A program made the translations under genes and the position numbers. From Synechococcus sp. (GTDB taxonomy: Bacteria; Cyanobacteriota; Cyanobacteriia; Thermostichales; PCC-7336), in contig JBFRWN010000082.1 in the NCBI GenBank assembly GCA_051439605.1, positions 1 through 64,000 on the forward strand: a stretch of 64,000 nucleotides of DNA, read 5' to 3'. Positions 200-6,139 of this stretch are shown here, one piece after another; position 1 is the stretch's first letter, and each line of letters starts with the position of its first letter. The notes beneath the pieces were generated by a model. That model was given only the letters and a program-made list of their open reading frames with translations, searched no databases and had not been told where the DNA came from.

Positions 200-1888
200 A
201 TGCAAACCTGCTACTGCCTCAACCCAGACTGCCAGCAACCGCATAACGAGCACAATGCGTTATCATGTGCCGCTTGTGGCACAAAATTATTGTTGCGGGG
301 ACGCTATCGGGCTTACAAGCGTCTCGGCCAAGGTGGGTTTGGAACAACCTATTTGGCACGCGATCTGGACATGCCCTCCCAACCATGGAGAGCAATCAAG
401 CAGCTGCGGGTGGCTGAAGCCTCCGAGCAAGTTGCCCAACTCTCAAAAGAACTGTTTATGAGAGAGGCTCAAGTTCTGGAGAAGCTGGGAGAGCATTCCC
501 AGATTCCCACCCTTTACGCCTATTTCGGAGAAGATAACCGCTTCTATCTGGTACAGGAATTTGTCTTGGGAACCACCCTATCCAGCGAGATACATCGCAA
601 TGGGGTCATGAACGAAGAACAGGTGCATCGTATCCTCAAAGAGGTTCTGTTGATTCTGAGCTACGTCCACAGCAAAAACACCGTCCACCGAGACATTAAG
701 CCCGCCAACCTAATTCGTCGTAAAGATGACGATCGCCTCGTTTTAATCGACTTCGGCGCTGTGAAACAAATGGGAATTGCGGGGATGGAAGAAATGCCCT
801 CTTCTGTGACTGCGATTCGCTCTTTGGGTTTCTCGCCCCCCGAGCAAATGTCCGGCCACGCGGTTGGTCCAGCTAGCGACCTCTACGCCTTGGCGGCTAC
901 CTGTGTCAACCTCATGACCTGCAAATCCCCCAACCGCTTCTTCGATGCCAAACGGAATTGCTGGACCTGGCAAGATGCTGTGAGCCTCGACAATCGACTG
1001 GCCGAAATCATCGAACGGATGCTGCATCCCTCGATGTCTGAACGATACGAAAGTGCAACTGCCGTGTTAAGGGCATTGCAGGAATCCACGAGCAGCGGCG
1101 TTGGGGCAAGAGCCACCGTCCAATCCAGTAACACCACGTCCACCATTACTACCACGGCCGAGAGTAATCCCATTTCCCGTAACTGGTCTTACCGCAGCGG
1201 AGACACGGGGTTTCGACCCGTTTCTGCCTATCGTAAAGAACAGCCCACAGCCAGAACCGCATTGTCAACTAGCAGTACAGGATTTTCTAAAGTCAGCAGG
1301 CAAGACTTCGCCATTAAAACCGTTGCACGGGAAAATTCCTCATCTGGGTCTTCCTCGACATCTCTTTCCCTTTCTACAGCTGCCCCAGTGCCCTCTATGG
1401 AGGGGGCGGATTTGAGCAACCGAAATATGGCAAAAGAATGTTTAACAGGCTGTAATTTGCGCAAGTCTAATTTGGCTGGAACCAATTTATCGGGGGCCGA
1501 TCTACGGGGGGCCGATCTGCGGGGAGCGACTTTTACGGGACCAGCACCCAATTGGCAACTGATTCTAGTGCACTTGTTCTGGATGGGTCGAAACCTGTTG
1601 GGCATCATTATTGGGGTCCTATGCCTCGTTCTGGCTGCAGGAACGGCCGGTTGGGGAATTTATGCGCTCACCAGCAATCTGTTGCTGGGGGGAATAGGTG
1701 GATTGTTGGCAGCAATCTGTGCTGGCTGGTCCGTGTGGCAATTCACAGAGCGTCGTATCAGGTTGCCGATGACTCCCGGAGAGAGCCCACAGCGTTACAC
1801 ATTGCTGAGCGGTGCCGATCTTCGACAGGCACAAATGGATAGCCGCTTGCGACTGCATGCCAAACGGCAAGGGGCACGGCTGAGCTAG
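200..1888 (+). CDS. Ser/Thr protein kinase with N-terminal 4-Cys motif, pentapeptide repeats and C-terminal TM helices
   Basis: CxNPxC...CxxCG prefix; LGQGGFG, AIKQL, HRDIKPAN, DFG motifs; AxLxx pentapeptides; two hydrophobic helices. ATG at 200 preferred over TTG at 140. Confidence 0.9.
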   Translation: MQTCYCLNPDCQQPHNEHNALSCAACGTKLLLRGRYRAYKRLGQGGFGTTYLARDLDMPSQPWRAIKQLRVAEASEQVAQLSKELFMREAQVLEKLGEHSQIPTLYAYFGEDNRFYLVQEFVLGTTLSSEIHRNGVMNEEQVHRILKEVLLILSYVHSKNTVHRDIKPANLIRRKDDDRLVLIDFGAVKQMGIAGMEEMPSSVTAIRSLGFSPPEQMSGHAVGPASDLYALAATCVNLMTCKSPNRFFDAKRNCWTWQDAVSLDNRLAEIIERMLHPSMSERYESATAVLRALQESTSSGVGARATVQSSNTTSTITTTAESNPISRNWSYRSGDTGFRPVSAYRKEQPTARTALSTSSTGFSKVSRQDFAIKTVARENSSSGSSSTSLSLSTAAPVPSMEGADLSNRNMAKECLTGCNLRKSNLAGTNLSGADLRGADLRGATFTGPAPNWQLILVHLFWMGRNLLGIIIGVLCLVLAAGTAGWGIYALTSNLLLGGIGGLLAAICAGWSVWQFTERRIRLPMTPGESPQRYTLLSGADLRQAQMDSRLRLHAKRQGARLS

Positions 1889-1911: not shown

Positions 1912-2730
1912 TTAACGACGTACAGGGATATGTTGCTGCATCAATGCTGTTTTGATGGTATCGATCGACAGTTGACCGAAATGAAGGAGGGAAGCAAGCA
2001 AAGCCGCCTCCGCCTTCCCTTCAGTCAGAGCCTCGCAAATGTGCTCGGTGTTGCCTGCACCACCAGAGGCAATTACAGGAATCTGAACGGCATCAGCCAC
2101 TCTGCGCGTTAGTTCTAGGTCATAACCCGCCTGTGTACCATCGGCGTCCATACTGGTCAGTAAAATTTCACCCGCTCCTCGCGATTCCATTTCTTTTGCC
2201 CAGGCGATTGCATCTAGCCCCGTAGCTTCACGCCCACCCCGGACGTAAACCTCCCAGCGATCGTCACGATGTCCGCCCCTCTCTCGCTCCGGACTACGGC
2301 GGGCATCAATTGCCACCACAATGCACTGCTGTCCAAACAAAGCGCTGGCATCGCTGACTAACTCTGGCGTATGCACCGCAGCAGAATTCATGCTAACTTT
2401 GTCCGCCCCGGCCCGCAGCAGATCGCGGATGTTATCAACCGTTCGTACGCCTCCCCCAACCGTTAGAGGAATAAACACCTGTTCTGCAGTCCGTTGCACG
2501 ACCTCGTAAATGATGCCTCGGTCTTCGTGGGTGGCCGTAATGTCTAAAAAAACGAGCTCGTCTGCCCCAGCTTCGTTGTAAGCCCGCGCTAGTTCCACCG
2601 GATCCCCGGCATCCACAAGATTGACGAAGTTAACGCCTTTAACAACACGCCCAGCATTAACGTCAAGGCAGGGAAGAATGCGTTTGGCAAGCACAGATTT
2701 CGGTTGAACACGGTTCTCCGAGTGTGCCAT
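1912..2730 (-). CDS. hisF: Imidazole glycerol phosphate synthase cyclase subunit
   Basis: [42 protein letters not shown] motifs. Confidence 0.97.
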
Positions 2731-2876
2731 ATTCTGCTAACGACTATTGCTGTTGCCATTTCAGTTAGGGCTGACATCTCTATGCTTTGTAAGGGATCGG
2801 GAGGGCTGAGATGTTCGATGACTCTCAAGAGCGTCTGACCCGCTGAGCATACAGAATTGATCGGTGAAATAACCTA

Positions 2877-2905
2877 TTGACGTTCCTGAATGGGGACACT
2901 AGCAT
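2877..2905 (+). promoter_or_regulatory. Putative sigma70-type promoter of the DAHP synthase leader
   Basis: TTGACG (2877-2882), 17 bp spacer, TAGCAT (2900-2905). Confidence 0.55.
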
Positions 2906-2974
2906 TAGGGTAAGTTAATATTAGGCAATCACTTTTCAGGGATTTGCCAAATCTACCAACCATTGACCCAGATT

Positions 2975-3025
2975 ATGTACAGAGTTCGATTTAACTTTTG
3001 GTTTACGGAGGCGCACCTGATGTAA
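2975..3025 (+). CDS. Putative attenuator leader peptide 1 (MYRVRFNFWFTEAHLM)
   Basis: 16-codon ORF read directly; 5 aromatic codons (Y,F,F,W,F); followed by antiterminator/terminator hairpins upstream of DAHP synthase. Confidence 0.7.
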   Translation: MYRVRFNFWFTEAHLM

Positions 3026-3052
3026 GTTGCTCTTATTTTGAGCGTTCAGGTG

Positions 3053-3086
3053 GCCCCCACAGTGCAATGTGAGGGGCTTTTGTTTT
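3053..3086 (+). terminator. Intrinsic terminator (attenuator 1)
   Basis: GCCCCCACA-gtgcaa-TGTG(A)GGGGC stem followed by TTTTGTTTT. Confidence 0.75.
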
Positions 3087-3134
3087 GCTTATCTAATGTT
3101 CTCGTTCGCTACTGTCTAGCTACCTTCAACTCCA

Positions 3135-3329
3135 ATGATTGTTAGTTCCTCCTTCGCCAATAACTGGGTTCAGTCGATCGCTAAGCGTTTCGACTGGGTT
3201 CAAACAGCAGTTGCGTACCAACCAATTAGCAACCTTAACGGTCTCACCACACCCGTCTGGAGGCACAGGCAAGTATTCGGACACCTCAGTAGCAATCCAT
3301 TTTTTAGCAGCTTTTTCTGGTTCGGATAG
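3135..3329 (+). CDS. Putative attenuator leader peptide 2 (64 aa, ends FFSSFFWFG)
   Basis: 13 of 64 codons aromatic, 6 of them in the last 9 codons; followed by a hairpin and T-run 57 nt before the DAHP synthase ATG. Confidence 0.55.
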   Translation: MIVSSSFANNWVQSIAKRFDWVQTAVAYQPISNLNGLTTPVWRHRQVFGHLSSNPFFSSFFWFG

Positions 3330-3368
3330 CCGTCCGGGTAGAGGAACGCGTATGTGCTCATCTTGCCC

Positions 3369-3395
3369 AGCCCCCAAGGTCCGGGCTTTTTTATT
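3369..3395 (+). terminator. Putative intrinsic terminator (attenuator 2)
   Basis: AGCCC-ccaaggtcc-GGGCT followed by TTTTTATT; short stem. Confidence 0.5.
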
Positions 3396-3449
3396 GCCTA
3401 TCTCGTCTATTGTTCTCCAATTCTTCAAGTCAACCATTTGGACAACCCC

Positions 3450-4346
3450 ATGAAAAATCTTAAACTTGCCAGTAAAGCCACTGTCAATCGACCTACCGTA
3501 GTACCCATCAGCAAAACAGTTGCCTTTGGTGGAAATGAGCTTGTGATAATCGGTGGCCCCTGTGCGGTTGAAAGCCAGCATCAGATGGAGGCTGTAGCCC
3601 AAGAGTTAGCCCCCTCTGCCATCAGCATGTTAAGAGGGGGAGCCTTCAAACCACGAACTTCCCCCTACAGCTTTCAAGGGCTAGGACAAGAGGGACTGGA
3701 GATTTTAGATGCAGTGGGTCATGAGTACGACCTACCGGTGGTGACAGAAGTCATGGCAGTCGAGCAATTACCAGCGGTTTGCCAACATGCGGACATGCTG
3801 CAAATTGGCAGCCGTAACATGCAAAACTTCGATTTACTGAAAGCGGTGGGTGGCACCCGTAAACCCACGATTCTTAAACGAGGTCTAGCAGCCACTCTAG
3901 AGGAGTTCGCGATGGCCGCCGAATACATCATGAGCAGCGGCAATCCTAACGTTGTGTTGTGCGAACGGGGCATTCGCAGTTTCGATTCTTACACCCGTAA
4001 CGTGCTCGATCTAGGGGCAGTTGTGGCCCTTAAACAACTCACTCACCTGCCAGTGATTGTCGATCCATCTCATGCCTCAGGAAAACGGGAGCTGGTTGCC
4101 GATCTTGCCCGAGCCGCGATCGCCTGTGGAGCCGATGGACTCATGATTGAGTGCCATCCTCAGCCGGAACAATCGGTTTCAGATGCTCGCCAAGCCCTGT
4201 CGTTGGAAGCCATGGTCAAATTGGGCGAAGACTTAAGACCGATTGCAGCAGCAGTGGGGCGCATCTTACCCAGTTCGCAGCTGCTATCGATGAATGCTTC
4301 TTGGAGGAAATCTTTATCTCCCGAGCAGACGGTGACGGTAGCATAG
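3450..4346 (+). CDS. aroF: 3-deoxy-7-phosphoheptulonate (DAHP) synthase, type I-beta, catalytic barrel only
   Basis: IIGGPCAVES, RGGAFKPRTSPYSFQG, LKRG, LCERGIR, VDPSHASG motifs; ATG at 3450. Confidence 0.93.
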   Translation: MKNLKLASKATVNRPTVVPISKTVAFGGNELVIIGGPCAVESQHQMEAVAQELAPSAISMLRGGAFKPRTSPYSFQGLGQEGLEILDAVGHEYDLPVVTEVMAVEQLPAVCQHADMLQIGSRNMQNFDLLKAVGGTRKPTILKRGLAATLEEFAMAAEYIMSSGNPNVVLCERGIRSFDSYTRNVLDLGAVVALKQLTHLPVIVDPSHASGKRELVADLARAAIACGADGLMIECHPQPEQSVSDARQALSLEAMVKLGEDLRPIAAAVGRILPSSQLLSMNASWRKSLSPEQTVTVA

Positions 4347-5659: not shown

Positions 5660-5852
5660 TTTTCCTGAAAACACTATATGTAGCGACTGTACTGATATTT
5701 TTCCGGCAAAATGCTCTACATTTATTGCTTGTTAGTCTAAATTTATTTGTTAGAAAATGATAATTGCGATCGCATTTCTAACCAGGGAAAAATACTTGTT
5801 CACTTATTTTTGAGACGATTGAGGTCCCCTTTTGGGATATCGAAGGATATAC

Positions 5853-5912
5853 TGAGGTTATTCATCACCTCAACACACCACTCCTCCCCCAGACCTGTCT
5901 GGGGGTTTTTTT
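5853..5912 (+). ncRNA. Candidate Yfr1-like small RNA (two hairpins with C/A-rich linker), includes intrinsic terminator
   Basis: TGAGGT/ACCTCA hairpin, ACACACCACTCCT linker, CCCCCAGA/TCTGGGGG stem and T7. Confidence 0.5.
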
Positions 5913-6139
5913 AGGGGTTTTGGTAGTAGCACAGTTGAATATTCGAAATTGATTTTAAAACACTGTATTTAGTGGGTGTGAGTTTCTTAAAGTTCCTTTT
6001 TGAATGCGCTGAATGTTTGTTCTGACAAGCATTTCTCGCACCTCTTAGAAGGTTGTAGACTCCGCAGAAATAGTAGGGGTCTATTGCAACCTCTACCCAG
6101 TGGATTTATGGTGTCTGGTGAGAAATAGGAGTTTTTGCG

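Follow-up and report, generated by a model that had tools for sequence, protein, structure and literature searches.

The window analysed here, a 64,000-nt stretch of Synechococcus sp. DNA, carries at 3450–4346 (plus strand) a gene for a DAHP synthase of type I-beta in which the N-terminal regulatory domain is missing, the match to PRK08673 starting at model position 67. Two leader modules, each with a short frame containing aromatic codons, an antiterminator and an intrinsic terminator, precede the gene in series, and hisF is located upstream of module 1 in opposite orientation. Across the enzyme clade, an open frame of at least 60 amino acids was present upstream of the enzyme start in 8 of 160 loci, versus 19 of 19 paralogues. 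The best solved relatives of the window enzyme include 262–276 amino-acid chains (PDB 1vs1, 1zco), short type I-beta DAHP synthases in which the N-terminal domain is likewise absent and which we take to be unregulated enzymes from hyperthermophilic archaea. From the missing domain we infer that the window enzyme would be free of feedback inhibition. That it is the only DAHP synthase of the genome was ruled out by a type I-alpha isoenzyme gene on another contig (G000:C76:37831-38718, minus strand), with no match of the module-1 covariance model nearby; a search of the genome for a type II DAHP synthase gene gave none. Further downstream in the window, a strong terminator-like hairpin followed by a long U-tract (5886–5915) was observed in the AT-rich gap after a phosphate-acetyltransferase-like gene, and a 55-codon frame (5747–5914) precedes this hairpin.

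The module 1 leader frame extends on the plus strand from ATG at 2975 to TAA at 3025 and encodes the 16-residue peptide MYRVRFNFWFTEAHLM, exactly as the sequence-only reading had proposed, with the control codons F6, F8, W9 and F10 within the series F6-N7-F8-W9-F10 at 2990–3004 (Phe always TTT) and without a Shine-Dalgarno sequence. Folding also bore out the earlier coordinates, with an antiterminator (5′ strand 3007–3020, inner helix 3028–3044, which is variable among relatives, and 3′ strand 3046–3057) and an intrinsic terminator (3053–3086), which consists of a hairpin at 3053–3077 (-17.1 kcal/mol; 3 of 200 shuffles equally stable) and the U-tract TTTTGTTTT at 3078–3086. In a transcript ending at 3058, with a fold energy of -23.0 kcal/mol, the pairs 3007–3008:3056–3057, 3010–3012:3053–3055, 3014–3020:3046–3052 and 3028–3032:3040–3044 are formed, and region 3003–3060 obtained a z-score of -3.7, with none of 200 shuffles equally stable. 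A sigma70-type promoter (TTGACG, 17 nt, TAGCAT) was identified by promoter scan at 2877–2905, plus strand, which would place the transcription start near 2911–2912; the terminators of both modules were passed over by the same promoter and terminator scan because of its strict stem rules. Neither blastn nor the module-1 covariance model identified a second copy of the leader in its own genome.

The antiterminator and terminator had been described as mutually exclusive through a 7-bp core, CACCTGA/TCAGGTG, with an extension. This is correct for the extension (3007–3012:3053–3057), i.e. five outer antiterminator pairs spanning 3053–3057, the stretch common to the antiterminator 3′ strand and the terminator 5′ arm, but not for the core, which has no overlap with the terminator and lies side by side with it in the full-length fold. 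The core (5′ strand 3014–3020) is therefore scaffold and the extension is the switch, so that the compensatory mutations suggested earlier for CACCTGA/TCAGGTG aim off the exclusive pairs. In equilibrium folding, the terminator state was favoured by about 3.7 kcal/mol. The antiterminator had been expected to compete energetically; instead, the terminator won the equilibrium in every state, and the same was found for the E. coli trp and phe controls. Since these proven attenuators show the same equilibrium, the outcome does not refute a switch, but the model then needs a co-transcriptional order of folding.

Folding with a ribosome footprint was run with terminator advantage defined as the energy of the terminator relative to the best state without it, the ribosome covering the transcript to P-site +11 or +13. 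In the window, the advantage was -3.8 to -4.5 kcal/mol with the ribosome at F6 or F8, -3.9 or -6.5 at W9 and -6.7 or -12.0 at F10, whereas a ribosome on the stop codon gave -11.1. In E. coli trpL, the corresponding values were -5.5 to -7.8 kcal/mol for a ribosome on the Trp codons versus -12.7 to -14.0 for one on the stop codon, and in pheL -2.3 to -5.6 (with one value of -10.8) versus -11.6 to -15.1. As the sequence-only reading had anticipated, a stalled ribosome thus leaves the antiterminator free under the assumed footprint and one which has finished the frame covers it; the swing is like that of the E. coli leaders. Its suggestion of stalling on the Phe and Trp codons applies to F6 and F8; F10 is excluded because a ribosome there already covers the antiterminator, and W9 is dependent on the footprint, assumed at P-site +11 to +15, which decides whether this codon counts. 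The same direction of switching, by more than 2 kcal/mol, was obtained in all 126 scorable module-1 sequences and in 129 of 131 scorable module-2 sequences.

The proposed geometry of a classical attenuator was retained with respect to leader, terminator, exclusive antiterminator and ribosome-dependent swing, but a strong 1:2 protector hairpin was not predicted in module 1. Without a ribosome, the terminator advantage was -5.3 kcal/mol in the window versus -13.8 and -14.8 in the E. coli controls, and freeing of the terminator arm cost 7.4–8.2 kcal/mol, versus 0.2 (trp) and 0.8 (phe). Among the relatives, the median cost in module 1 was 7.5 kcal/mol (below 3 in 2 of 131), and module 2 was mixed, with a median of 4.1 (below 3 in 46 of 131). 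As module 1 lacks a strong 1:2 protector, its predicted default in the absence of a ribosome is read-through.

Module 2 comprises a leader frame at 3135–3329 of 64 amino acids from the only in-frame ATG, ending in FFSSFFWFG, an antiterminator at 3336–3368 recognised by folding and family covariation, and a terminator at 3365–3392, all on the plus strand. Module-2 frames are long in the genus of the window (53–64 amino acids), and within the 64-codon frame a long hairpin was observed at about 3165–3206. Compared with three genomes of its genus, whose stop corresponds to 3339–3341, the frame is cut short by four codons, and the terminator is weak (-8.1 kcal/mol versus a family median of -16.6), with A at 3369 where relatives have G. 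Four sequencing runs were compared as contigs, some of them single contigs with a depth below 5, and parts left uncovered carry no meaning: a metatranscriptome contig of a sister strain had the bases of the relatives at both 3327 (C) and 3369 (G); a sister-strain DNA contig from another study likewise had G at 3369; a run from the study possibly behind the window agreed with the window at this base; and another run had T at 3012, with the antiterminator pair kept as G-U. One metatranscriptome contig of 214 nt, which may be DNA, runs from module 2 into the enzyme gene. Judged from these sequences, module 2 looks recently decayed in this strain, which would make module 1 the likely main switch. 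In another genome, the module 2 stop is shifted to an earlier position than in the close relatives L129, L131 and L138 (L119, near 934–1036, minus strand), possibly a second case of decay.

A single sequence of this kind proves little, since 12 of 29,908 short ATG frames in the same genome combine aromatic codons with a terminator-like hairpin; the case against chance rests on conservation, position and covariation. Among 401 genomes of the class, at least 143 carry the enzyme clade (at least 60% identity); seven loci in which the upstream DNA was too short or the match incomplete were removed, so that 136 remained, among them the window. With a motif-blind detector, 108 of these loci had two modules, 25 had one and 3 had none, whereas among 21 control loci below 53% identity none had two modules, one had a single module and 20 had none, the first 200–270 nt examined there being coding sequence of the regulatory domain; in 60 shuffled clade leaders, the corresponding numbers were 0, 2 and 58. 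The strict detector is blind to real modules with interrupted U-tracts, and in its relaxed form returned at least two modules in 122 of the 136 loci and one in 14; six spurious frames from the relaxed search were removed before the energy statistics. With four loci rescued by the covariance model and two by eye, 128 of the 136 loci had two modules, the remainder having module 1 alone in six loci of one family (L195, L197, L199–L201, L214) and module 2 alone in two (L139, L192). The compared genomes are related, and hence not independent.

In searches of 41 whole genomes, the module-1 covariance model matched seven, once each and always just upstream of the enzyme gene; it matched none of 33 genomes without the enzyme clade and missed one of eight carriers (G003, 17.8 bits), in which module 1 is visible by eye. 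Against module 2 the model gave weak scores of 15–28 bits, a likeness for which common origin and a shared U-rich and terminator make-up cannot be told apart from the sequences. Of 132 modules, 116 have the word TTGAC in the 160 nt ahead of the module-1 start, compared with 26 of 115 equally long coding-sequence windows; ahead of module 2 it is present in only nine loci (70-nt window). With a promoter before module 1 but rarely before module 2, the enzyme gene seems to be dependent on read-through. Shine-Dalgarno-like words preceded the enzyme gene in 94 of 115 loci, but only 8 of 132 module-1 starts and 12 of 114 module-2 starts; leader translation is for this reason a prediction only. In two loci (L206, L208) where the DAHP synthase retains its N-terminal domain, the upstream region holds an aromatic leader of another kind (MKISQYWYSFTF...), together with a strong terminator.

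For covariation, 68 diverse module-1 and 74 module-2 sequences were aligned. In module 1, 94.7% of the antiterminator cells and 98.2% of the terminator cells were paired, and changes on both sides of a pair were seen in 7 of 10 and 7 of 8 pairs, respectively; neither covariation score was reached by any of 500 shuffles, and slid registers remained below two thirds of the score. Changes in the shared strand were tracked by both partners (T:A:T 101, T:G:C 15, C:G:C 1), so that upon a change from A to G the antiterminator partner is still pairable and the terminator partner changes along. Two-sided changes of the antiterminator were mostly in the scaffold, as the exclusive overlap is short (4–5 pairs) and its innermost G-C pairs are nearly invariant and hence without covariation signal. 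In module 2, 91.3% (antiterminator) and 92.9% (terminator) of the cells were paired, and the antiterminator pair count was weaker (3 of 9 pairs, matched by 229 of 500 shuffles).

Exclusive conserved structures also occur in leaders that bind a protein, a tRNA or a metabolite. A TRAP-like, T-box-like or riboswitch-type leader in which the reading frame is incidental is nevertheless regarded as very unlikely: no Rfam family was matched in 2700–3500 (the sole match, with E 3.2, was a chance snoRNA), just about 30–45 nt of structure is located ahead of the terminator, start codon and frame length are conserved, and in-frame stops occurred in 0 of 115 loci versus 47 in the shifted frame, frame 0 being open by selection of the set. 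Module-1 peptides, mostly of 16–20 amino acids, follow the family pattern [FY]n-F-W-F-x-x-V-H-x-x-stop, and all 127 typed peptides contained both Phe and Trp, with Tyr, for which both codons are in use, in 123, five mistyped module-2 peptides being left in these counts. The two modules use the same amino acids, with averages per peptide in 115 paired loci (module 1/module 2) of 3.1/3.9 for F, 1.2/1.5 for W and 1.8/1.7 for Y. In the genus of the window, Asn or Ser is found at the Tyr/Phe positions of the family, and the window copy should thus sense mainly Phe, perhaps Trp.

The strong conservation of V-H in the peptide, together with the coexistence of core stem and terminator at equilibrium, could also be read as a constitutive terminator which releases a small RNA or a functional small hydrophobic peptide, the long stem merely stabilising the hairpin. 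However, the V-H codons themselves make up the antiterminator strand, the RNA motif of module 2 is kept in loci in which its reading frame has shifted (L171, L185, L178), and the promoter lies ahead of module 1 and only exceptionally ahead of module 2; we consider this explanation highly improbable in comparison to attenuation by leader translation.

In three Melainabacteria assemblies, two copies of the enzyme gene were found (loci L060, L074, L093 and L058, L059, L062), one after Phe/Trp leaders and the other after tandem Tyr-only leaders. Both Tyr-only copies with downstream DNA (L060, L093) are followed by a gene for chorismate mutase-prephenate dehydrogenase, as is the Tyr-rich copy of another clade, L055, and in L054 only the mutase domain was found; frames behind two of the Phe/Trp copies matched no Pfam family. 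Leader codon content thus appears to follow the downstream branch, in these two clades only. The occurrence of Tyr-only leaders on aroF-tyrA and of Phe/Trp leaders on the other copy resembles a transcriptional echo of amino-acid-specific isoenzymes. In six other Melainabacteria loci, all of one clade (L064–L068, L087), leader and terminator are absent upstream. Melainabacteria were nested among cyanobacterial rows with a support of 93 in a quick-search tree, from which no direction of transfer is claimed.

The codons are relevant for a further explanation, namely that the leader is a general sensor of transcription-translation coupling, which reacts whenever the ribosome is slow or missing, be it through light, energy or nitrogen, and in which U-rich aromatic codons are kept for pausing or slow decoding and not for amino-acid specificity. 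The predicted read-through without a ribosome is in line with such a sensor, as is the Phe codon bias of module 1 (368 TTT : 30 TTC, versus 23,362 : 15,453 across the long frames of the genome), but TGG in every typed peptide, the use of both Tyr codons and the Tyr-only leaders, largely TAC/TAT, which accompany tyrA operons speak against it. We give this sensor a small chance as the whole explanation, although it can coexist with an attenuator for aromatic tRNAs.

Conservation within one clade, covariation of both exclusive helices, codons matching the pathway and a swing like that of E. coli all support the ribosome-dependent attenuation suggested by the sequence-only reading. Module 1 is, with high probability, a ribosome-mediated transcription attenuator for charged aromatic tRNAs, the first of two before a DAHP synthase without an allosteric domain. 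According to this attenuator model, RNA polymerase would start near 2912, and the stem 3007–3020:3046–3057 can, as computed, form before the 3′ arm of the terminator is transcribed. When Phe-tRNA runs short (Phe being the main signal in this strain, perhaps alongside Trp), the ribosome would wait at F6 or F8, possibly W9, leaving 3007–3012 free to hold 3053–3057, and the polymerase would read on; a ribosome past F10 would cover 3007–3012, allowing the terminator to form and transcription to stop near 3082. Module 2 would operate by the same logic, so that full expression in the family would need two read-throughs; for the present strain, a leaky module 2 is predicted, with module 1 acting as the main switch. 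An untranslated leader would be read through, and termination would need a ribosome that keeps pace and passes the aromatic codons in time, a leak which two modules in series would offset.

A wider version of this model, held only tentatively and somewhat short of an even chance, is a phylum-wide default-on double attenuator in which the leaks of two modules are multiplied into a tight control replacing the lost allosteric domain. Termination at each module would then require a ribosome that initiates without a Shine-Dalgarno sequence and catches the polymerase in time.

The closest known systems are trpL-trpE and pheL-pheA of E. coli, which likewise have a short leader of cognate codons, an antiterminator in competition with an intrinsic terminator and, by computation, a difference of about 7 kcal/mol between a stalled ribosome and one that has finished; the present leader differs in controlling the entry enzyme of the pathway, in using codons of all three aromatic amino acids (in the family), in having two modules in series, and in lacking a strong 1:2 protector in module 1 and a match in Rfam. 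In Corynebacterium glutamicum, an aromatic-codon leader peptide is likewise located upstream of a DAHP synthase gene: aroR-aroF (Neshat et al. 2014, as summarised in PMC11802643) is described as one module whose peptide contains Phe-Tyr-Phe and which responds to Phe but not to Tyr, and the leader peptide is noted also in PMC4046766. Both systems share the aromatic leader, with a reported response to Phe limitation in C. glutamicum, but that organism belongs to another phylum and has one module, the comparison being by description. In Acholeplasma, the predicted uORFC-13-1 combines a Phe-codon uORF and a terminator upstream of aroF and is represented by 24 sequences from Acholeplasma and environmental DNA only (PMC8632094). 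Compared again by description, it shares with the window a Phe-codon uORF and a terminator before a DAHP synthase, but has one module and a ribosome-binding site, whereas the modules here are in tandem and without Shine-Dalgarno sequences. Two uORF-coupled attenuators in one leader are known from Salmonella mgtCBR, where mgtM and mgtP sense ATP and proline (PMC3641672); the signals there are different and, by implication from the same source, an intrinsic terminator is not present for each, while both modules here carry F, W and mostly Y, each with a terminator, although their thresholds may still differ.

Within cyanobacteria, no description of leader-peptide attenuation or of this element was found in the literature, in which subscription papers were thinly covered; reliable data on attenuation in this phylum are lacking according to a 2016 paper (PMC4833913), and no relevant passage was found in the main text of two 2010 studies, by Weinberg (PMC2864571) and by Naville (PMC2965389). 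The putative attenuator is outside every curated family and, by the folding predictions, lacks one defining classical feature, the protector hairpin. What would be new is in-series attenuators on the entry enzyme of the pathway, predicted to be default-on, in a phylum for which no report of the mechanism was found.

A leader-peptide switch needs coupling of transcription and translation, the universality of which was treated as open in a 2021 review (PMC7858274), and the coupling question in cyanobacteria thereby becomes testable with a reporter of 500 nt. If the default-on version is true, expression would rise upon a change of the start codon, opposite to the super-attenuation known from E. 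coli trp. The leader would then also serve as a natural gauge with which coupling can be followed in vivo in cyanobacteria. Natural variants for dissection are provided by single-module loci, Tyr-only leaders and the strain with a decaying second module, and the system is of relevance for engineering of aromatic compounds in cyanobacteria. For the organisms themselves, the arrangement suggests that entry into the shikimate pathway is controlled by transcription in place of allostery.
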